Part shown: positions 2,814 to 36,271 of the stretch, in pieces
How positions within the stretch are numbered: position 1 is the stretch's first letter
Layout of the letters: every line of letters begins with the position of its first letter
Source: Candidatus Nealsonbacteria bacterium CG23_combo_of_CG06-09_8_20_14_all_40_13
GTDB lineage: Bacteria; Patescibacteriota; UBA1384; UBA12157_A; GCA-002773005
DNA: 37,309 bases
Assembly: GCA_002771215.1 (NCBI GenBank)
Contig: PCRM01000039.1
Span: 1-37,309, forward strand
Reading direction: 5' to 3'
The notes under the pieces: generated by a model
Database searches by the model: none
Told to the model about the DNA's origin: nothing
The model's input: only the letters and a program-made list of their open reading frames with translations
Translations under genes and position numbers: made by a program

Positions 2814-4564
<1,751 letters not shown>

Positions 4565-10605: not shown

Positions 10606-10760
10606 ATTAAAATTAGTATTTTTATTATAGCGCCTATCGGACGATATATTAAATTATTAAATTTATTATAGCGCCGAATACTGCGCTTTATTAAATTACT
10701 AAATTTATTATAGCGTTGAATACTGCGCTTTATTAAATTATTAAATTTATTATAGCAAAG
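10606..10760. repeat. 42-bp tandem repeat: two full units, a truncated third and a degenerate leading copy
   Basis: Units at 10648-10689 and 10690-10731 differ at 3 positions. 10732-10757 is truncated and 10606-10647 is degenerate. Each unit contains ttattatag and the small palindrome AGCGC-n8-GCGCT. Confidence 0.85.
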
Positions 10761-12934: not shown

Positions 12935-14923
12935 TTAGATTATAAATTGAACAATTAAAAGCGCAATGATGTTTAAAATTTTAATCATTGGGTTGATGGC
13001 CGGGCCGGCCGTGTCTTTGTAGGGGTCACCAACCGTGTCGCCGGTCACGGCGGCTTGGTGGGTAAAGGAGCCCTTGCCGCCCAATTTGCCCTCCTCAATG
13101 TATTTTTTGGCGTTGTCCCAGGCGGCGCCGCCGGAAGTCATAGAAATGGCGACAAAAATGCCGGTGATAATGGAGCCGACCAAAAGGCCACCCAGCGCTT
13201 CGGGACCAAGTAGCCAGCCAACTAAAATCGGCGAGAGTACCGGCAGCAGCGCCGGCAAAATCATTTCTTTCTGTGCCGCCGCCGTCACGATAGCTACACA
13301 ACGGCTGTAATCAGGTTTGGCCGTGCCTTCCATAATGCCTTTGAGTTCTTTAAACTGGCGGCGCACTTCCACCACCACCGCGCCGGCCGCTTTGCCGACA
13401 GCCGACATCGCTTTGGAGCCAAAATAGTAGGGCAAAAGACCGCCGATAAATAAGCCAACCAAAACATAAGGGTCGTTCAATTGAAAATTGAAAATTGAAA
13501 ATTGAAAATTCTTTAATTCTTCTGTGTAGACGGAAAAAAGCACCAAGGCGGCCAGACCAGCTGAACCAATCGCGTAGCCCTTGGTCGTGGCTTTAGTAGT
13601 GTTGCCAACGGCGTCTAACAGATCCAAATTACTGCGCACTTGAGCGGGTAAATTAGCCATTTCACAAATGCCGGCGGCGTTGTCGGCAACCGGCCCGTAA
13701 GCATCAATAGCGATAATAATGCCCATCACCGAAAGCATGGCAAAAGCGGCCATTGCCACCCCAAAAATGCCGGCTAAAAGATAGGAAAAAATTACGCCGG
13801 CGCAAATGATTAAAACGGGCCCAGCCGTTGAAGACATAGAGACAGCCAATCCGGTAATAATGTTAGTGCCATGGCCGGTTTGTGAGGCCTGGGCGATAGA
13901 CAAAACCGGTCGGTATTTTTTAGAAGTGAAATAGTCGGTAATTAAAACCAAAAGCCAAGTCACGGCCAAACCGATTAAAGCGGCATAAAATAAATTCGAG
14001 TTTGGTGAGATATCTTTATTTTTTAATATCCACCAAAAGCCAGCAGCCGACAAAATTGCCGAGACAATTAAACCCTTGTAAAATCCAAACATAATATTTT
14101 TGGCGCCTTGAGGAATACTAATAAACCATGAGCCGACAAGGCAAGCTAAAATAGCTATGGCGCCCAAACCAAGCGGCAAAGCAATCATCAGTTGTGTTTT
14201 GAAAATAATTTCTGCCAAAAGCATGGCGGCCACGGTGGTCACCACATAAGTTTCAAATAAATCGGCGGCCATGCCGGCGCAATCACCCACGTTGTCACCC
14301 ACGTTGTCGGCAATCACCGCCGGGTTGCGCGGGTCGTCTTCGGGAATGCCCGCTTCAACTTTGCCAACTAAATCCGCGCCGACATCGGCGGCTTTGGTAA
14401 AAATGCCGCCGCCCAATCGGGCAAAAATGGAAATGAGCGAACCGCCGAAACCCAAGCCAACCAAGGCGTATAGGTTGTGGGTCCATTGATAAAACATTGT
14501 GACAGCCAGCAGTGCCAAGCCGGCCACCAAAAAGCCAGTTACCTGGCCCGATTTGGCGGCAATGAAAAAAGCTTTCTGCTGGCTGCCAACCGCCGCTTGC
14601 GCGCAGCGCACATTAGCTCTGGTGGCGACAGTCATGCCAATTGCGCCGGCTAAAGCCGATAAAAATCCGCCCAGCAAAAATCCCAAAGCAGTGATTAATC
14701 CTAACTTCCACCAAATAATCGCGGCTAAAACTATGGCGATGGCGGCTACAACTTGGTACTGTCTTTTAAGATAAGCCGAAGCGCCTTCCTGAATAGCTTT
14801 GGCTATCTCCTGCATTTTTGCGTTGCCGGCCGGTTGGCGCATAATCCAGAAAATTAGATAAAGACCATAAAGGATGCCAAGAGCCGAAGCACCCAAAGCA
14901 AACCAAAGAAAAGTTTTTTCCAT
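12935..14923 (-). CDS. hppA: Membrane-bound proton-translocating pyrophosphatase (K+-independent signature)
   Basis: [32 protein letters not shown] (Lys at the position that is Ala in K+-dependent enzymes), [18 protein letters not shown]; 662 aa, multi-TM. Confidence 0.95.
13481..13508. repeat. (ATTGAAA)4 heptanucleotide tandem repeat inside the hppA coding sequence
   Basis: attgaaa x4 read directly. Encodes [10 protein letters not shown] in a loop between TM helices. Confidence 0.9.
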
Positions 14924-28937: not shown

Positions 28938-29293
28938 CTTCTAAAAACGAAATAGACGCCTGCAATAATTAGAACAACGCCTGCTATCCTTACCGGTGAG
29001 ATAGTTTCATGTAAAAAGGCCCAAGACAAAAATAAAATTAAAATATAGCCCAAAGAGAGCAAGGGATAAGCGATAGATAAATCAACTTTGGACAAAATCA
29101 TCACCCAAAGGACAGACGACAAAACATAAAGAAACAAGCCAAGCAAAATCATTGGCGCGGTAAAGGCCTTGTATAAAAAAGTGGCAATTGGCATATTACT
29201 GTAAGAACCAATGTGGTTAATCGCTTGTTTTATCAGAAATTGACCAGCAACACCCAAGGGAATGTTGATTAAAATTAGTAAAAGACTAGACAT
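28934..29293 (-). CDS. Small 4-TM EamA/SMR-like membrane protein (ArnE/ArnF-like flippase-subunit candidate)
   Basis: 119 aa with four hydrophobic helices. Overlaps the oxidoreductase and rfbD genes and lies next to the GT-C gene. Confidence 0.55.
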   Translation of the reverse strand: MSSLLLILINIPLGVAGQFLIKQAINHIGSYSNMPIATFLYKAFTAPMILLGLFLYVLSSVLWVMILSKVDLSIAYPLLSLGYILILFLSWAFLHETISPVRIAGVVLIIAGVYFVFRS

Positions 29294-30137
29294 TGTTCTC
29301 CTTCATATAATCCTTTAAAGCGCTTTGCCAAGAACGTGGTTTTATTTTAAACGTTTTTTGAAATTTATGCGTATTTAAAACAGTATAATTTGGCCGAGGC
29401 GCGCCGCCGGGCTTAATTTTAGACCATTGCTGAGTTGTTATCGGGATAATTTTGACGTTATTTTTATTTTTTAATTTTAAAATCTTTTGGGCAAACTGGA
29501 ACCAAGAACAAGAACCTGAATTTGTAAAATGATAAAGTCCATATTTTTGTGTCAAAATAAGCTTGGATAGACCCCTGGCTAAATCCAAAGTGTAAGTTGG
29601 GCTACCAAACTGATCGGAAACTACATTAATCTCTTTTTTGGTTTTTGTTAAATTTAAAATGGTTTTGGGAAAATTCTTGCCTTCGCCGTAAAGCCAGGCA
29701 GTGCGGACAATGAAAAATTTTTTCAATATTTTTTGCACTTGCCTTTCGCCGGCTAATTTTGATTGGCCATAGATACCCAAAGGATTGGTTTTGCCTGCCT
29801 CAGAATAAGGCGTTTTCTTTCTGCCGTCGAAGACGTAATCAGTAGAAATATAAACCATCGCCGCGCTAATTTTTTTGGCTGCTGCCGCCACATTGGCCGC
29901 GCCGCCGCGGTTAACTTTGAAAGCCAATTTTTGATTCAACTCTGAACCATCAACATCGGTGTAGGCAGCGCAGTGAATAATAACTTGAGGGGAAATTTTT
30001 AAAATTTTTTTTAAAACCTCTTTTTTATCGGTAATATCCATCTGTTCTTTGTCAACAAAAAAAGAATCCTTTTCTGGTAAAACTTTTTTTAAAGCCCGGC
30101 CTAATTGTCCATTGCCGCCGGTAACTAATACTCGCAT
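29286..30137 (-). CDS. rfbD: dTDP-4-dehydrorhamnose reductase
   Basis: MRVLVTGGNGQLG, STDYVFDG, YGQSKLAGE (YxxxK). ATG 30137 with an AAGGAG SD is preferred to TTG 30155. Confidence 0.85.
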   Translation of the reverse strand: MRVLVTGGNGQLGRALKKVLPEKDSFFVDKEQMDITDKKEVLKKILKISPQVIIHCAAYTDVDGSELNQKLAFKVNRGGAANVAAAAKKISAAMVYISTDYVFDGRKKTPYSEAGKTNPLGIYGQSKLAGERQVQKILKKFFIVRTAWLYGEGKNFPKTILNLTKTKKEINVVSDQFGSPTYTLDLARGLSKLILTQKYGLYHFTNSGSCSWFQFAQKILKLKNKNNVKIIPITTQQWSKIKPGGAPRPNYTVLNTHKFQKTFKIKPRSWQSALKDYMKENNV

Positions 30138-30151
30138 TTTTAAACTCCTTT

Positions 30152-31173
30152 TCAAACATACTCCTTATAAATCTGGCTGGCAAGACTGCGACTCAGTTTG
30201 TAGCTATTGCAATGTTGCAATAGTCCTAAGTAAGAGGACAGATTTTTTCGGTTGGCTCTTTTGAACATTCTTCTTTTAGTTTTGGTTCTCAAGAGCCGAT
30301 AGTGGGGCAAAACTACATAACTCAAGAAATCAATTCCTTGTTTTAATTTTCGAATAATAATTTTATTAGGATGTACTTTAAGTTTTAACTTGTTGTTCAA
30401 AAAATGCTCTATAACCTCGATTAAAGATTTTAATTTCTCCAAATCACTGCCTAAAACCACAAAATCATCGCAATAGCACAGGTAATATTTTGCGCCAGAG
30501 GCGCATCCGCCTTTGGCGGAAATTTTCAGGTTGTGCTTAATAAATTTATCAAGTACATCAAGATAAATGTTGGCAAAAAGCTGGGAAGTTAAATTGCCGA
30601 TTGGGATACCCCTATTAACTCTCTCTCTCTCTCTGGATTTCCAAAGCTCAAAATAATATTCCAAAGCAAATCCAGAGTATCTTTTTCGAAAACTTTTTTC
30701 TTAATCAGCTCAAACAAAATATGATGATCAACTGAATTAAAAAACTTCTTGATATCGCACTTTAACGCCCAACATTCGCCAATATAATTTTTCGATACCT
30801 TTCGAGTAAAACTTTCCAACCTATCAACCGCCTTATGTGTTCCCTTTTTATTCCAACAAGAATAAGAATCATAAATAAACCCTTTATCAAATATCGGATA
30901 CAAAACTCTGTAAATTGCGTGGTGAACAATTCTATCCTTGACACAGGCCTTGTGAATATTTCTTACTTTTGGGTCAGTAATAAAAAATGAGGTATAATTT
31001 GAATGTCGGTAAGTTCTGTTTTTTAGTTCAAAATGCAAACTAAACAGATTATCTTCTAAATTCCGCTCAAAAATTTGGACATCTGATTTTTTACATTTAC
31101 CCTTGCGAAATTCCTGCCAACTGGCAAATAAATTTTCTAAACTAATAATTTTACAAAAAAGATTATTATGCAA
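30152..31173 (-). CDS. DGR-type reverse transcriptase, interrupted by a frameshift in an (AG)8 tract (two ORFs: 30589-31173 and 30152-30664)
   Basis: N-terminal ORF has LENLFASWQEFRKGK and RT motifs 1-3. C-terminal ORF has RGIPIGNLTSQLFANIYL (the (I/L)GxxxSQ motif typical of DGR RTs) and YCDDFVV (YxDD). The frames join if one AG unit is removed, giving about 339 aa. Apparent TTG start at 31173. Confidence 0.8.
30619..30634. repeat. (CT)8 / (AG)8 dinucleotide repeat at the RT frameshift site
   Basis: Read directly: aa-ctctctctctctctct-gg. Confidence 0.95.
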
Positions 31174-31524
31174 AATGAAATTCCTTTATTTCAAAAAATA
31201 TATGACTTTTATAAACTATTTTATGCTTGCATTGATAATTTCTCCAAAAAATCTCGCGAAACTTTAGCGTCAAAAATAGAAAATACTATTATTGGGCTCT
31301 TAGAATCAGTCGCATCGGCTGCATATACCAACCAAAATGAAAAGTATAGTTCCATCCTGAATGCTTCTGCCAAAGTGGATTTTCTTAAAATTCTTTTCAG
31401 ACTTTGTTACGAATTAAAAATTATTAACCAAAAGAAATACCTTCTGATGGAAGAAAAATCACAGGAAATCGGTCGTATGCTTGGCGGTTGGATTAAATCA
31501 TTAAAAACATCAGACCGCTCATAA
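31168..31524 (+). CDS. avd: Avd-like accessory variability determinant (four-helix-bundle / 23S rRNA-intervening-sequence protein family)
   Basis: 118 aa, predicted all-helical, C-terminal IGRMLGGWIKSL resembling the Avd LGxWI motif. Adjacent to TR and RT but on the opposite strand; its ATG (31168) overlaps the RT start codon region. Confidence 0.75.
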   Translation: MQNEIPLFQKIYDFYKLFYACIDNFSKKSRETLASKIENTIIGLLESVASAAYTNQNEKYSSILNASAKVDFLKILFRLCYELKIINQKKYLLMEEKSQEIGRMLGGWIKSLKTSDRS

Positions 31525-31536
31525 AACGGTCTGATG
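31508..31536 (-). terminator. Perfect 10-bp hairpin abutting the TR; terminator-like on the minus strand
   Basis: CATCAGACCG-ctcataaaa-CGGTCTGATG. On the minus strand it is followed by TTTTTAA. The loop contains the avd stop codon. Confidence 0.5.
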
Positions 31537-31538
31537 AG

Positions 31539-31670
31539 AAATTCCCACGGGACGCACAGCCCTGTTGTTCCAGTGATTATCGACATTGTTGTAGTTCACA
31601 TCCGCAAGTCCACCGTTGTCAGAGTTACCACCATTGAGACGGTTTGAAGCGTCCTTGAAAATTTATTTGT
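31539..31670 (-). repeat. DGR template repeat (TR)
   Basis: Non-coding copy of 32005-32136 (offset 466). On the minus strand it carries seven AAC codons in the VR frame, all of which differ in the VR. The 5' boundary is fuzzy and may extend to about 31680. Confidence 0.85.
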
Positions 31671-31917
31671 TCTCGTCAATCAGCCACTGTCCCTTGATCA
31701 CTCTTGGGGCTGTATTTTATTTGAAAGTACCCCGATAATTCGGAGATCTTTTCTAAAAACAGATAAGGAGTTTCTTTTCTTTAATGGCAATTCTTTGAAG
31801 CCTTGGCCGCAAAGTTTATAACCATTAAAAGGAATCAAGTATTATTCTTAAGCCATAGCCGAAGAAGCAAACTTGTTCCAAAAACATTTTATCAAAAAAT
31901 GAGAAAATTACAAAAAT

Positions 31918-31946
31918 GGCGGGGAACCTAATGCAGGTTCCCCGCC
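31918..31946 (-). terminator. G+C-rich 11-bp hairpin downstream of the target gene/VR (terminator and/or DGR-associated stem-loop)
   Basis: GGCGGGGAACC-taatgca-GGTTCCCCGCC, followed by ATTTTTG on the minus strand. It lies about 50-75 nt past the stop codon. Confidence 0.5.
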
Positions 31947-31993
31947 GAAAGATAGGGGTCCAAGAGACCAAAAGAACCAAAGGATCAAAAAGC

Positions 31994-32932
31994 CTAAGCG
32001 TCCAAAACTCCCACGGGACGCACAGCCCTGTAGCCCCAGTGATTATCGACATTGAAGTAGAACGCATCCGCAAGAAAACCGCCGCCAGAGCTACCACCAA
32101 AGAGACGGCTCGAAGCGCCCCTGAAAAACTCCTCGAACCAGACCCAAGTATTGGTCCGGCCGTCTTTTTTGCGGGGTATCCACATGTAAAGCTGTGGGAT
32201 GACGTTGGCCTCGATGGTCTGCTCTAGGCGGAAGGTTACCCCTTCGAACTCCGGACGGGCCTCGAGCGCTGGTCTGATGTGTTCATCCCATTCTGAGGAT
32301 GAGATGTTAAACCGACTGCTTGGCGGACCGGCGTCGGTGTGGGCAATTTTGCCTTCGGTACGAAGAGCTTCAATCACTCCACCAAGGAAGCCTTCGTCGT
32401 TGGCAAACATCTGTCGACCGCCATCGTAAGCCGGCTTGCAGCGGGTGTCGATGAGGACGGTGGTGCCTTCGAAGCGAACTTCTTTGACTATTTCCAACTC
32501 GCCAGCGACGTTACGGCGCTTGATGGAGCCGTCCGCCACCTTCTGCCAGAACCATGACTCGGGTTTGATCTTCCAGCCGGGAAATTTTGATCCATGCGTG
32601 AAGACAATCCTGGGTAAAAAGTGGGGCTTCAATCCCAGCTTGGCCCATTGCATGACGCGCTTTTCGCCAAACTGTTTCAGTGTTGCCGCAAACTGTGACA
32701 AGTCGAATGTCTCGTTGAAGAAAGCGCCGAGAGCATTATTCTCGGCTTGGACCAACTGATCAAGCCAGTTGATTTTCGAACGAATCAGCACATTCCGCAA
32801 ACCTTCTGATAGTTGTGCTGAATGTCCAATCCAGAACAATGCATCTTCCTCAGAGAGATCATCGGGTAAAATTTCCGTAATCCTACCGATAATCCTTCTT
32901 TGGGTTTTTAAGGTGAGGGTGGTCCGAGACAT
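31994..32932 (-). CDS. DGR variable (target) protein with C-terminal VR; likely C-type-lectin-fold ligand-binding domain; no signal peptide seen
   Basis: 312-aa ORF with GGAGG SD. The C-terminal ...WVWFEEFFRGASSRLFGGSSGGGFLADAFYFNVDNHWGYRAVRPVGVLDA is encoded by the VR. Visibly more G+C-rich than its neighbours. Confidence 0.8.
   Translation of the reverse strand: MSRTTLTLKTQRRIIGRITEILPDDLSEEDALFWIGHSAQLSEGLRNVLIRSKINWLDQLVQAENNALGAFFNETFDLSQFAATLKQFGEKRVMQWAKLGLKPHFLPRIVFTHGSKFPGWKIKPESWFWQKVADGSIKRRNVAGELEIVKEVRFEGTTVLIDTRCKPAYDGGRQMFANDEGFLGGVIEALRTEGKIAHTDAGPPSSRFNISSSEWDEHIRPALEARPEFEGVTFRLEQTIEANVIPQLYMWIPRKKDGRTNTWVWFEEFFRGASSRLFGGSSGGGFLADAFYFNVDNHWGYRAVRPVGVLDA
32005..32136 (-). 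repeat. DGR variable repeat (VR)
   Basis: Near-identical to the TR. 22 mismatches in the core, 19 at TR adenines (minus-strand sense). An identical 22-nt block CAGGGCTGTGCGTCCCGTGGGA lies at the 3' end. Confidence 0.85.
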
Positions 32933-33095
32933 TTCGGGTGTTCCTCCTTTGCGCCACCTGCCTGCCGATGAGGCGAGGTTCAGGAATTTACGCGCTTCTT
33001 GCTCTCCTTAGAGCTTATTTAATCAGGATAAAATAGCCGTTTCCCTGGCCAAATAAGCTCCAAGGAGTATTTTCAAGGTTCAATTCTAACACTAA

Positions 33096-33124
33096 AGTAT
33101 AGCATAAATATGAGAAAAAGTCAA
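33096..33124 (-). promoter_or_regulatory. Sigma70-like promoter for the DGR target gene
   Basis: Minus strand TTGACT (33124-33119), a 17-nt spacer, then TATACT (33101-33096), about 160 nt upstream of the ATG at 32932. Confidence 0.45.
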
Positions 33125-33342
33125 GAGAAAAAGATCTGTGATAGAGATTTGAGATAGAGACGAAAACGAGCGAGCCTGTAGCCGAAGCAAACCATGTTCC
33201 GCCAAAAGGCGGATAAACTCCGACAAGTCGACTGGTCCGCCGAAACTTTAGTGAAGGCAGAGACACGAGCAACGCCCGGGGAAAAACATTAATTTAGAAC
33301 ATTACGGCGATTGCGTGTTTGCGCGGCGCAGGCGAGCGATGG

Positions 33343-34341
33343 CTATTTGTTATAAATCTTTTCCGCTTCGGCTTTTAGTTTTTTCCACCAGGCCGGGTTT
33401 TGGCGATACCAAGCCACGGTTTGGGCAAAAAGTTTTTTAATATCTTTTGAGGGCCGCCAGCCCAACCGTTTTATTTTTTGTGCTGAAAGCCCGTAACGAA
33501 AGTCGTGTTGTGGCCGCGGGTCAGGTACAAACTCAATCCAATCCTTGGGGTCAATTTTCATCGCCTGGCACAAAATTTCGGCGACATCGCGGTTTCTGAT
33601 TTCGGGCTTGTTGTTGGCCGCGATGTTATAAGCTTGCCCAATTTTGCCTTTTTTAATCAAAAGTTCTATCGCTCGGCAACAATCCTCTACATAAAGCCAG
33701 TCGCGCACCTGCAAACCCCTACCCCAAACCGGCATTTTTTTACCCAAAAATACATTAGTGATGTAGCGAGGCAGGGCTTTTTCTGGATGTTGGCGAGGAC
33801 CAAAATTGTTGGTCGGCCGGACAACGATTACCGGTACTCCTTTTTTGGCATACTCACGAGCCAGTTTGTCGGCTTGGGCTTTAGATTTGGGATAATCGGA
33901 TTTTAAATAGCGAAAGCGCCGGTCGGCATCATTTTCTTTAAAAAAGCCATTTTTGATAGAGCCGTAAATTTCATCGGAAGAGATATGAATGAATTTTGAT
34001 AATTTCGTTTTGGTCGCTGCCTCCAAAAGCGTCCTTGTCCCCTTAACGTTGGTTTTGTAAAAAATTTCTGGGTGTTTTTCAGCCCGTGTGTTGTGGCTTT
34101 CAGCGGCAAAATGAACAACGATGTCAATATTCTTCAACAAATCATTCACAAGTTTTCTATTGCAAATATCGCCCTTGACAAATTCAATTTTTTTTAGCAC
34201 TCCCTTTATATTGTCAGTGTCCCCGGCATAAGTCAAAGCATCGAGCACTACAATTTTGTCTTGGGGGTGCTTTTTGACCCAAAAGTGGACGAAGTTGCTC
34301 CCAATGAACCCCGCTCCGCCAGTAATTAGAATCTTTTGCAT
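33343..34341 (-). CDS. rfbB: dTDP-glucose 4,6-dehydratase
   Basis: MQKILITGGAGFIGSNF, catalytic YPKSKAQAD (YxxxK), RmlB colinearity. ATG 34341 is preferred; the 27-codon ORF-track extension is encoded by an A-tract repeat array. Confidence 0.9.
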   Translation of the reverse strand: MQKILITGGAGFIGSNFVHFWVKKHPQDKIVVLDALTYAGDTDNIKGVLKKIEFVKGDICNRKLVNDLLKNIDIVVHFAAESHNTRAEKHPEIFYKTNVKGTRTLLEAATKTKLSKFIHISSDEIYGSIKNGFFKENDADRRFRYLKSDYPKSKAQADKLAREYAKKGVPVIVVRPTNNFGPRQHPEKALPRYITNVFLGKKMPVWGRGLQVRDWLYVEDCCRAIELLIKKGKIGQAYNIAANNKPEIRNRDVAEILCQAMKIDPKDWIEFVPDPRPQHDFRYGLSAQKIKRLGWRPSKDIKKLFAQTVAWYRQNPAWWKKLKAEAEKIYNK

Positions 34342-34412
34342 AGTGATTTTTTTAATTTTTTCAATTTTGCATTTTACATTATCATTTTGAGATTTGCATT
34401 TTGCACTTTGAA
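34342..34412. repeat. 7-nt-periodic T/A-tract array in the rfbC-rfbB spacer
   Basis: tcaattttgcattttacattatcattttgagatttgcattttgcactttgaatt. Shares CAAAATGCAAA (minus-strand sense) with the groES-groEL spacer array. Confidence 0.6.
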
Positions 34413-34982
34413 TTATCGCCATTTATATCCAATCTCCGGGCTATTATAAGGCAAGCGTTCTTCGTCTGGGCTTTCGGCATTATACGGCTCTGTCGTATGA
34501 TAAAAAAGCAAAACCGGCTCTTTTGACAAAACTTGATAGCCGTGGGCGATGCCTTTAGGAATCAGGACTAATTTATAATTATTTTCGCCGGCTAAAATAA
34601 CTTGAGTTTTTTTAAAAGTCAGTGAATTTTTTCTTAAGTCATATAGGACTATTTTTGCTTTACCGGTAGCAACAAACCAGAGGTCATCTTGTTTGTGATG
34701 AAAATGAAAACCTTTGATTGTTCCTTGATAAGCGACCGTAAAAGTAGTTTGACCAAATTTTTGAAGTAGTTTATCGTCTTGACGTAAAACTTCAACGAGA
34801 AAACCAGGCTTTATTTTGGCGGCGAGAATACCCCGCCTCTTGGGGCGAGGATGAAAGCCGCCGAAAGAACTCGCCCGAAGGGATACCCCGTCCCTTGGGA
34901 CGGGGTAGTTCATTTTCGTCTTTCGAACATCGGGTATATCACGATGGATTTTTAATTTTTTGATTTTTACACCTTCAATCAT
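34413..34982 (-). CDS. rfbC: dTDP-4-dehydrorhamnose 3,5-epimerase carrying a 39-codon in-frame insertion
   Basis: Cupin core GFHFHHKQDDLWFV...IPKGIAHGY. Removing residues 21-59 restores IPDVRGFLVEVLR, which matches the usual RmlC DxRG strand. Confidence 0.8.
   Translation of the reverse strand: MIEGVKIKKLKIHRDIPDVRKTKMNYPVPRDGVSLRASSFGGFHPRPKRRGILAAKIKPGFLVEVLRQDDKLLQKFGQTTFTVAYQGTIKGFHFHHKQDDLWFVATGKAKIVLYDLRKNSLTFKKTQVILAGENNYKLVLIPKGIAHGYQVLSKEPVLLFYHTTEPYNAESPDEERLPYNSPEIGYKWR
34806..34922. repeat. 117-nt G+C-rich palindromic element inserted in frame in rfbC
   Basis: Minus strand: TACCCCGTCCC-aa-GGGACGGGGTA (11-bp stem), GGGCGAG...CTCGCCC, GGCGGC...GCCGCC, ending ...GGCGGGGTA. No stop codon in the rfbC frame. 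Confidence 0.75.
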
Positions 34983-35482: not shown

Positions 35483-36271
35483 TTAGTAAATTCGTAGTCC
35501 CTTCTTCCTTGCCCAATAAACTGCGGTTTTAAATAAACTATCAAAGGTGCCGGCATCCGACCAAAAACCTTCCAGTGTCGCCCAAGCTAATTTGCCGGCT
35601 TTAACGTAGCAATTATTTACATCAGTTATTTCCAGCTCGCCGCGGGCTGATGGTTTACATTTTCGAATAAAATCAAAAACCTTGTTGTCATAGATGTAAA
35701 GCCCAGTGACTGCGAAATTTGATTTTGGCTTTTTGGGCTTTTCCTCGATTTTGACAATTTTATGCGTTTCCGGAGTTATCTTGTTTTGAGTTTTTCGTTT
35801 TAAGTTTTGAGTTTGAAACACCGGCACGCCAAAGCGCTGGGGGTCGGTTACTTCTTTCAAAAAAACCATTGCTCCCTTCCCCGAAGGGGAGCCTTTGGCT
35901 TTAAATTTTTTTACTGGTTTAGAAATATCGGCATCAGTACAATTGTCGCCTAAAATAACGGTGACTGGCCCGCCCTCAGCAAAATCTTCACAAAGTGATA
36001 AGGCCTGAGCAATACCGCCCTCTTTTTCCTGATATGTGTATTCTAAATGTTTAAGCCCTAATTTTTTGCCATTACCCAAAACTCTGATATAGTCCCCTGC
36101 ATAAGGGCCGCCTGTCACAATAATTACATCTTTAATTCCAGCTTTAACGAGGGTTTGAATCGGATAAAATACCATAGGGGAATCAAAAATCGGCAATAGG
36201 TGTTTTGATGTAGCATAGGTAAGAGGATATAGCCTTGTCCCTAAACCACCAGCAAGTACTACTCCCTTCAT
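35483..36271 (-). CDS. rfbA: Glucose-1-phosphate thymidylyltransferase (short form) with in-frame repeat insertion
   Basis: MKGVVLAGGLGTRLYPLT, EEKPKKPKSNFAVTGLYIYD. The segment QTQNLKRKTQNK is encoded by the 32-nt repeat copy at 35783-35814. Confidence 0.85.
   Translation of the reverse strand: MKGVVLAGGLGTRLYPLTYATSKHLLPIFDSPMVFYPIQTLVKAGIKDVIIVTGGPYAGDYIRVLGNGKKLGLKHLEYTYQEKEGGIAQALSLCEDFAEGGPVTVILGDNCTDADISKPVKKFKAKGSPSGKGAMVFLKEVTDPQRFGVPVFQTQNLKRKTQNKITPETHKIVKIEEKPKKPKSNFAVTGLYIYDNKVFDFIRKCKPSARGELEITDVNNCYVKAGKLAWATLEGFWSDAGTFDSLFKTAVYWARKKGLRIY
35783..35814. repeat. 32-nt perfect inverted copy of 2680-2711, inside rfbA
   Basis: gttttgagtttttcgttttaagttttgagttt equals the reverse complement of aaactcaaaacttaaaacgaaaaactcaaaac. 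Confidence 0.9.

Follow-up and report, generated by a model that had tools for sequence, protein, structure and literature searches.

A length-variable (AG)n tract as a probable on/off switch for the reverse transcriptase of a diversity-generating retroelement in Patescibacteria

In the 37,309-nt contig PCRM01000039.1 of Candidatus Nealsonbacteria bacterium CG23_combo_of_CG06-09_8_20_14_all_40_13 (assembly GCA_002771215.1; this whole stretch is called the window below), the reverse transcriptase (RT) gene of a diversity-generating retroelement (DGR) is split into two overlapping open reading frames (ORFs) that meet at an (AG)8 tract. Here, comparison with public contigs revealed that the length of this tract changes between near-identical genomes and sets the reading frame accordingly, and that hypermutation by the DGR is probably turned on and off as a result. 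We put a probability of about 0.7 on the reading that (AG)n is a conserved slipped-strand contingency (phase-variation) switch that gates DGR hypermutation and is mostly OFF.

Results

The RT gene is interrupted at a dinucleotide tract

The tract reads (CT)8 on the plus strand at 30619-30634, corresponding to (AG)8 in the sense of the gene, which lies on the minus strand, in the context GGAAATCC(AG)8TTAATAGG. An earlier sequence-only reading of the window had placed the break between the two RT ORFs at this position, and the sequence confirmed it. This is the only dinucleotide run of five or more units in the window (G+C content, 40.3%), and a comparable run was found in 0 of 100 dinucleotide-preserving shuffles with one mismatch tolerated, placing (AG)8 far above chance. 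The N-terminal RT ORF runs through the tract and ends ...GNPERERELIGVSQSAI*, and in the 8-unit allele the C-terminal RT ORF is not translated from the N-terminal start. As the same reading had predicted, alleles of 7 or 10 units constructed in silico encode a continuous RT of 339 aa (...GNPERERVNRGIPIGNLTSQ...) or a continuous protein of 341 aa, respectively. Alleles of 6 or 9 units run into a stop at ...ERES*. Public assemblies hold a protein identical to the N-terminal RT ORF (P0016), together with close variants. Near-identical proteins bear names that likewise assign the genome to Candidatus Nealsonbacteria (Patescibacteria).

The repaired RT matches Pfam RVT_1 (E 3e-23), and its best solved-structure match is the Bordetella DGR RT (bRT; 8ub7, E 4.7e-39). 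Motif 4 of the window RT, PIGNLTSQ, follows the DGR-type pattern [I/L]GxxxSQ, and the loop that bears the tract lies directly N-terminal of GIPIGNLTSQLFAN (motif 4). Because the tract precedes motif 4, an out-of-frame allele loses this motif, the YCDD and everything downstream. In bRT this loop is short, and among homologues its length differs by 0 to ~40 residues, making it a permissive site for the tract. A complete DGR encloses the tract, with a DGR-type RT, an accessory variability determinant (Avd), and a template repeat (TR) and variable repeat (VR) pair in which 19 of the 22 mismatches fall at TR adenines.

Tract length varies in a near-clonal population

The population set comprised 34 public contigs that encode RT fragments or, in one case, an intact RT, and that share at least 99.56% identity with the window across 1-10 kb; the RT-fragment proteins were gathered from 90%-identity clusters, whose members differ almost solely at the tract. 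Six units were found in 15 contigs (L002-L016; N fragment of 184 aa ending ...ERES*, C fragment of 162 aa), eight units in 12 contigs plus the window (L020-L027 and L031-L034; 194/195 and 170 aa), and nine units in six contigs (L017-L019 and L028-L030; 186 and 164 aa). L031 is 100% identical to the window and possibly represents the same assembly. A single contig, L001 (run SRR6051700), carries seven units and encodes one intact 339-aa RT (protein P0127), which constitutes the natural in-frame allele. The tract is the sole indel in the aligned region of the 34 contigs, and no further RT indel or stop was found among the 35 sequences of the lineage (the 34 contigs and the window). Repeat-length polymorphism in related genomes, which the earlier reading had named beforehand as a test of a slipped-strand on/off switch, was thus found, including a 7-unit allele that encodes an intact RT; the near-identical contigs of 6, 7, 8 and 9 units support such a switch, the functional step of which is predicted from sequence.

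Tract length is homoplastic with respect both to linked single-nucleotide polymorphisms (SNPs) and to the VR allele. An A/G SNP at window position 30322 and a linked SNP pair in avd were each seen with 6, 8 and 9 units, and the VR allele of the window is likewise linked to 6, 8 and 9 units, all of them OFF states. In five population contigs the sequence stops 41-166 nt past the tract, and many have their start inside the VR; contigs also break at the tract itself. Contig ends near the tract fit within-sample heterogeneity that breaks the assembly, an observation that is only suggestive.

VR alleles reveal recent DGR activity

In the target-protein cluster, allele P0143 differs in the VR only. 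The contigs that encode it (L235-L237, from three samples) show 21 differences from the window in 5371 nt, all 21 of them in the VR. Relative to the TR, their VR is altered at 20 positions, 20/20 at TR adenines, and has the TR base at the three non-adenine departures of the window VR. A third VR allele is found in L008; it departs from the TR at 20 positions, 18 of which are adenines. Mutagenic retrohoming has therefore left at least three products in a background without other nearby substitutions, revealing that the DGR was recently active in the same population and that the RT was functional very recently. Decay of the DGR, which we first read from the three non-adenine TR/VR mismatches of the window, was dropped as an explanation, because such mismatches are also common in DGRs of the candidate phyla radiation (CPR), which often carry several non-A changes (Wu et al., PMC5758913); the alternative VR allele has none.

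Further observations were made on the repeats themselves. Eight contigs begin inside the VR (L004, L005, L008, L011, L013, L015, L021 and L033), and L235-L237 stop shortly past it; in L005, the VR abuts sequence that normally lies upstream of the TR. Contig breaks at the VR are consistent with within-sample VR heterogeneity. The TR is itself polymorphic: L003 and L014 have five A-to-G substitutions, located in its 5' part and immediately upstream of it (window 31643-31667), three matching the VR base and two not. A CC-to-TT change another ~40-60 nt upstream (window 31707-31708) is common to L003, L014 and L005. VR-to-TR conversion, adenine mutagenesis of the TR and an assembly chimera are possible causes of the TR polymorphism.

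The tract is conserved across related DGR RTs

Approximately 10 of the 40 closest full-length homologues (57-71% identity) contain (Arg-Glu)n runs in the same loop. Public metagenome contigs were further searched for tracts of at least six AG units that have a degenerate P[IL]GNxTSQ-coding pattern 3-33 nt downstream. This family scan identified at least 120 contigs with (AG)6-25 in the same RT loop, which form at least 112 lineages when grouped at 95% nucleotide identity. The presence of the tract in orthologous RTs, a comparison that the sequence-only reading had proposed, is thus widespread; the family-wide conservation of the tract and OFF as its usual state were not foreseen there. The RTs recovered are diverse, most N halves sharing 36-76% identity with the window RT. 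At the 41 matched loci with enough upstream sequence, the TR lies ~1 kb upstream of the tract and the VR beyond it, and adenines account for at least 76% of the mismatches. A scan of species-representative genomes for the exact flanks gave no match, and the family tract pattern gave no match in viral contigs; a phage origin is therefore not supported.

Reading frames were assigned by tblastn frames and by open frames, which disagree at one N-containing locus only. The frame and integrity counts that follow, here and in later sections, are among the matches listed. By locus, 82 were out of frame (OUT), 19 in frame (IN) and 19 cut by a contig end; by lineage, 78 of the 96 assessable were OUT (81%) and 18 IN, so that in-frame lineages are rarer than the one third expected for random lengths (binomial p = 0.002). 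In-frame loci are intact in 15 of 16 cases. Close pairs outside the window lineage also differ in tract length: L207 and L220 are 99.4% identical and have 7 and 8 units, and L168 and L200 have 6 units (IN) and 7 units (OUT). Tract presence, mapped on a rough neighbour-joining tree built from the C half, is clustered (~21 state changes, compared with ~60 when labels were shuffled), which is only a hint of repeated gain and loss.

In several of these lineages (L207, L220, L226, L165, L132, L219, L171, L231 and L232), GC-rich stem-loops, several with UUCG loops, are located directly 3' of the tract, in the 40 nt after it. They sit in AT-rich genes, and individual cases reach -21 kcal/mol.

Out-of-frame RT genes are maintained

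Both halves are open in 57 of the 63 fully assessable OUT loci, the other 6 carrying extra lesions. In all 58 testable OUT loci with open halves, a single-unit change restores a continuous RT ORF (29 by loss and 29 by gain of one unit). For OUT-OUT lineage pairs with a synonymous divergence (dS) below 1.5, the median ratio of nonsynonymous to synonymous divergence (dN/dS) was 0.23 in the N half. In the C half, which is untranslated in the OUT state, it was 0.20. TR-VR mismatches are as adenine-specific at OUT loci (568/608) as at IN loci (147/155). As judged from these sequence comparisons, the out-of-frame RT genes are not decaying and both halves are under purifying selection.

The repeats are also specific to the RT gene. 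In 601 kb of tract loci, every other dinucleotide run of six or more units falls no more than 120 nt from the loop tract. The 416 kb surrounding 80 related RTs of species-representative genomes contain ten such runs, each located at the RT gene: two in the loop, each an in-frame (AG)10 (L035 and L037), and eight between the divergent 5' ends of avd and the RT gene. As simple-sequence repeats (SSRs) in these 416 kb are confined to the RT gene region, we argue that the repeats at this gene are selected. The eight latter runs form a second SSR class, at RTs without a loop tract, made up of (GT)6-13, (CT)10 and (AG/GA)8-16 in an avd-RT 5' region of ~35-60 nt (Table 1); their target may be a shared divergent promoter, the 5' untranslated region or N-terminal codons. 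The window differs from this class in having its tract in the loop and overlapping 5' ends of avd and the RT gene.

Proposed mechanism

In the proposed mechanism, slipped-strand mispairing during replication would add or remove AG units. In the lineage of the window, tracts with n = 1 mod 3 (7, 10 and so on) would allow the RT to be translated whole; the (Arg-Glu)n encoded by the tract would then lie in a surface loop that tolerates length changes, just ahead of motif 4. At other lengths, translation would end within a few codons past the tract, and the truncated RT, devoid of motifs 4-7 and of the catalytic YxDD, would make no cDNA and leave the VR frozen. Most cells and populations would be OFF, and rare single-unit slips would give rise to ON cells that diversify the target protein; lineages with a useful VR would then be stabilised once the tract slips back OFF. 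On these sequence grounds, the frame state is predicted to control RT activity, cDNA synthesis and VR turnover, and switching may be reversible and rapid, with an OFF bias that may have been selected.

Several points weigh against this mechanism. Only 1 of the 35 lineage sequences is in frame, and that 1338-bp contig stops short of the VR, so that the ON state and VR turnover are not directly linked. All tract lengths in the population come from assembled contigs, and both within-sample heterogeneity and a high switching rate are putative. The samples are not independent: few sites seem to be represented, and some reads may be common to the JGI, ENA and Logan contigs. SNP pairs show all four combinations, and recombination could therefore account for part of the homoplasy. 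The window RT also has a lineage-specific 10-aa insertion just before the YCDD that may affect its activity. Finally, slippage of RNA polymerase or of the ribosome on the tract could make OFF alleles leaky.

Alternative explanations

Slippage at the RNA level could also replace the DNA switch altogether, the RT being made from out-of-frame alleles by an RNA polymerase or ribosome slip (+/-2 nt) that provides a constant low dose, with DNA length variation as a side effect. A period-2 repeat would permit perfect re-pairing after a 2-nt slip, and recoding of this kind would agree with the prevalence of OUT lineages in the face of purifying selection on both halves, with the scarcity of in-frame alleles relative to the one third due by chance, as expected if full expression is harmful, and with the strong GC-rich hairpins that occur a few nt past the tract in some lineages, such as L207, L226 and L165. 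However, the matches listed show no fixed frame relation, with the two wrong frames equally common (+1 offset at 43 loci, +2 offset at 38) beside the 19 loci in frame, intact in-frame alleles exist, and a canonical slippery heptamer or homopolymer is absent. Structure downstream of the tract is not a family-wide property either: the median minimum free energy (MFE) was -7.15 kcal/mol, compared with -7.3 kcal/mol in tract-less RT loops, and the median z-score -0.47 compared with -0.34, while z < -2 was reached in 13% of cases versus 4%, with strong hairpins in a few lineages. A stimulatory hairpin as a family-wide feature and a programmed frameshift of fixed direction were accordingly rejected, the latter in agreement with the sequence-only reading, which had ranked programmed frameshifting as less likely. 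Length change at the DNA level was observed directly and is sufficient for the data. We consider recoding in place of the switch, the foremost of the rival explanations, rather unlikely; slipped-strand switching and RNA-level slippage are not mutually exclusive.

The tract might otherwise be a non-adaptive mutational hotspot, a fragile site that knocks the RT out and produces OFF dead ends refilled from an in-frame reservoir, with no selected switching. That most alleles are OFF, that most contigs of the population share the same VR and that 6 of the 63 OUT loci carry additional lesions would all be in keeping with a hotspot. Against it stand the pure tract at the same loop in at least 112 lineages, spread over many separate clades of the rough tree, where a purely harmful tract should be lost by synonymous interruption, the low dN/dS of the C half in OUT-OUT pairs and the undiminished adenine specificity of OUT-locus VRs. 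The second, independent SSR class in the avd-RT 5' region, in the absence of SSRs elsewhere in the 416 kb, further argues against a hotspot, which we regard as quite improbable. A plain pseudogene, also considered in the earlier reading, is ruled against by the open halves, the dN/dS values and the fresh VR alleles, and the window RT is free of other degenerative mutations. An RT assembled from two separate polypeptides is judged unlikely as well from the sequence, as the 8-unit allele has no ATG or GTG in the frame of the C-terminal ORF close to where the N-terminal ORF stops, and because the ORF starts chosen by gene callers also differ between alleles. The last candidate, likewise raised at the outset, is a sequencing or assembly artefact, in which the true gene is in frame and the eight units were introduced during assembly or polishing. 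Dinucleotide repeats are in principle prone to such errors, and several contigs end 41-166 nt past the tract; but (AG)6-9 tracts are well within short-read accuracy, and, rather than a single in-frame length, three out-of-frame lengths (6, 8 and 9 units in 15, 12 and 6 contigs) were each reproduced in many samples by the JGI, ENA, Logan and NCBI pipelines, making an artefact barely credible.

Genomic context of the DGR

The features of the DGR in the window and the sites of the second SSR class are listed in Table 1.

Table 1. Features of the DGR in the window (window coordinates) and second-class SSR sites (coordinates of the respective loci)
Feature	Position	Strand	Evidence or remarks
(AG)8 simple-sequence repeat, proposed switch element	30619..30634	-	variable loop, RT motif 3 to motif 4
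DGR reverse transcriptase gene, out of frame as 8-unit allele	30152..31173	-	repaired translation, RVT_1, 8ub7
N-terminal RT ORF, 194 aa, motifs 1-3	30589..31173	-	stop 28 nt past the tract
C-terminal RT ORF, 170 aa as listed	30152..30664	-	motif 4 PIGNLTSQ, motif 5 YCDD, motifs 6-7
bAvd, accessory variability determinant	31168..31524	+	PF22296, E 1e-20
Template repeat (TR), 123 nt	31539..31661	-	TR/VR pairing
Variable repeat (VR), 3' end of target gene	32005..32127	-	TR/VR pairing; three alleles in population
DGR target gene, 312 aa, no Pfam family	31994..32932	-	VR inside its 3' end
Second-class SSR, L036	2456-2467		avd-RT 5' region
Second-class SSR, L040	1772-1789		avd-RT 5' region
Second-class SSR, L048	849-868		avd-RT 5' region
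Second-class SSR, L050	2437-2462		avd-RT 5' region
Second-class SSR, L093	2443-2474		avd-RT 5' region
Second-class SSR, L096	1734-1753		avd-RT 5' region
Second-class SSR, L108	504-521		avd-RT 5' region
Second-class SSR, L112	2463-2478		avd-RT 5' region

The genes for Avd and the RT are divergent, with 5' ends that overlap by 6 nt (window 31168-31173), and the divergent orientation is found in 76 of the 80 related loci (L035-L114). In the Bordetella phage, the order avd-TR-brt is co-directional. As avd lies on the strand opposite the RT gene here, a TR transcript reading into the RT gene would be antisense through avd. Within the RT gene itself, a 30-nt GC-rich, partly palindromic in-frame insertion, GCCAAAGGCG...CGCCTCTGGC (window 30490-30519, minus strand), encodes SAKGGCASGA directly ahead of the YCDD; it is absent in 39 homologues and in bRT, occurs as a single copy in the window and is kept in every population allele.

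The DGR cassette (target, TR, avd and RT) is located within a dTDP-sugar/glycosylation cluster (window 29286-34422), with an rmlB-like gene on one side and an rmlD-like gene on the other, and downstream of it lie genes for an EamA transporter, an FAD oxidoreductase and a PMT_2 glycosyltransferase. The rmlB-like epimerase/dehydratase gene of the window (33343-34422) is intein-less and encodes 359 aa, while one sample holds an intein-containing allele of 695 aa (L003 100-2187). L235 and L236 also have a LAGLIDADG-like ORF further upstream (L235 1733-2575). The window contains several heptanucleotide tandem arrays, among them AATTGAA x4.6 (perfect) and AAAACTC x7.9. A repeat with a 42-nt unit (x3.5) is present too, and the tandem-repeat sites are 2679-2732, 4464-4562, 13479-13510, 34364-34414, 35783-35814 and 10610-10756. 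The array at 34364-34414 is in the 5' end of the rmlB-like ORF, and L002 spans it without an indel.

Discussion

A literature search of limited coverage gave no description of an SSR-controlled, frameshifted or phase-variable DGR RT, in line with the remark in the sequence-only reading that an SSR-gated DGR RT is not a standard described feature. The components of the proposed switch do have precedents: by analogy, its mechanics match CT/AG phase variation, and its logic matches mutL switches and phase-variable methyltransferases.

In Helicobacter pylori, the outer-membrane protein genes sabA and hopZ are switched by CT/AG repeats. In the same species, oipA phase-varies through a CT/AG dinucleotide repeat in its coding region (PMC10564699), and the likeness to the present case is close: a perfect CT/AG repeat inside an ORF, a repeat number that sets the frame, and on and off alleles among close relatives, slipped-strand mispairing being the accepted mechanism there. 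In H. pylori, however, the repeat is located in the 5' signal-peptide region of a pathogen surface protein, whereas here it lies mid-gene in a catalytic enzyme, in the motif 3-4 loop of an RT from environmental Patescibacteria, and the item switched would be a generator of variation rather than a phenotype.

Repeat-mediated switching of Salmonella mutL has been described as 'genetic switches modulating mutability' (PMC2955026). There too, a hypermutable tandem repeat within a gene toggles mutability in a two-tier evolvability circuit, but by an in-frame 6-bp copy-number change that affects the genome-wide mutation rate, whereas the tract described here is a frameshifting 2-bp repeat and the hypermutation is confined to one 123-nt VR. 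Phase-variable DNA methyltransferases, or phasevarions (PMC5909438), are similar in having a coding-region SSR in a cytoplasmic enzyme, at one position across many species, mined by pattern search and with ON and OFF alleles in natural strains; they differ in their outcome, which is an epigenetic regulon rather than retrohoming mutagenesis, and in their repeat units, which are mostly tetra- or pentanucleotide. The DGR itself resembles the canonical one of Bordetella phage BPP-1 (bRT-Avd-TR-VR; 8ub7) in its I/LGxxxSQ motif, its Avd, its adenine-specific TR/VR pair and the position of the VR at the 3' end of the target gene; unlike in BPP-1, avd is divergent from the RT gene in this clade, and the loop that bears the tract is short in bRT. 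In the fimbrial switch of Haemophilus influenzae, (TA)n lies in the overlapping divergent promoters of hifA and hifB. It is the second SSR class (runs of 6-16 units in eight other lineages), and not the window, that hifA/hifB resembles.

Gene callers split tract-bearing RTs into two 'hypothetical' ORFs, and DGR censuses that require an intact RT will therefore under-count or mislabel them. Surveys class many DGRs as 'inactive' without a mechanism (PMC8144416); the switch, if true, would account for the many environmental DGRs that appear inactive or whose annotation marks them as broken. For directed evolution based on DGRs, the tract could provide a tunable on/off module. The interest of the finding lies in its wide distribution and its conservation, and existing data allow a direct test.

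We give somewhat better than even odds to a broader statement, namely that a large group of DGRs of Patescibacteria (CPR) carries a conserved, selected 'switch on the mutator', a hypermutable dinucleotide repeat located in the loop (at least 112 lineages) or in the avd-RT 5' region (eight more), that is OFF by default and rarely ON, and would constitute a two-tier form of bet-hedging undescribed for any retroelement. A heritable, reversible and stochastic gate on the RT would supply a mechanism for the natural control of DGR activity across a large group of ultra-small groundwater bacteria. If true, this would represent a clear natural case of second-order selection, in which a mutability device is itself mutable.

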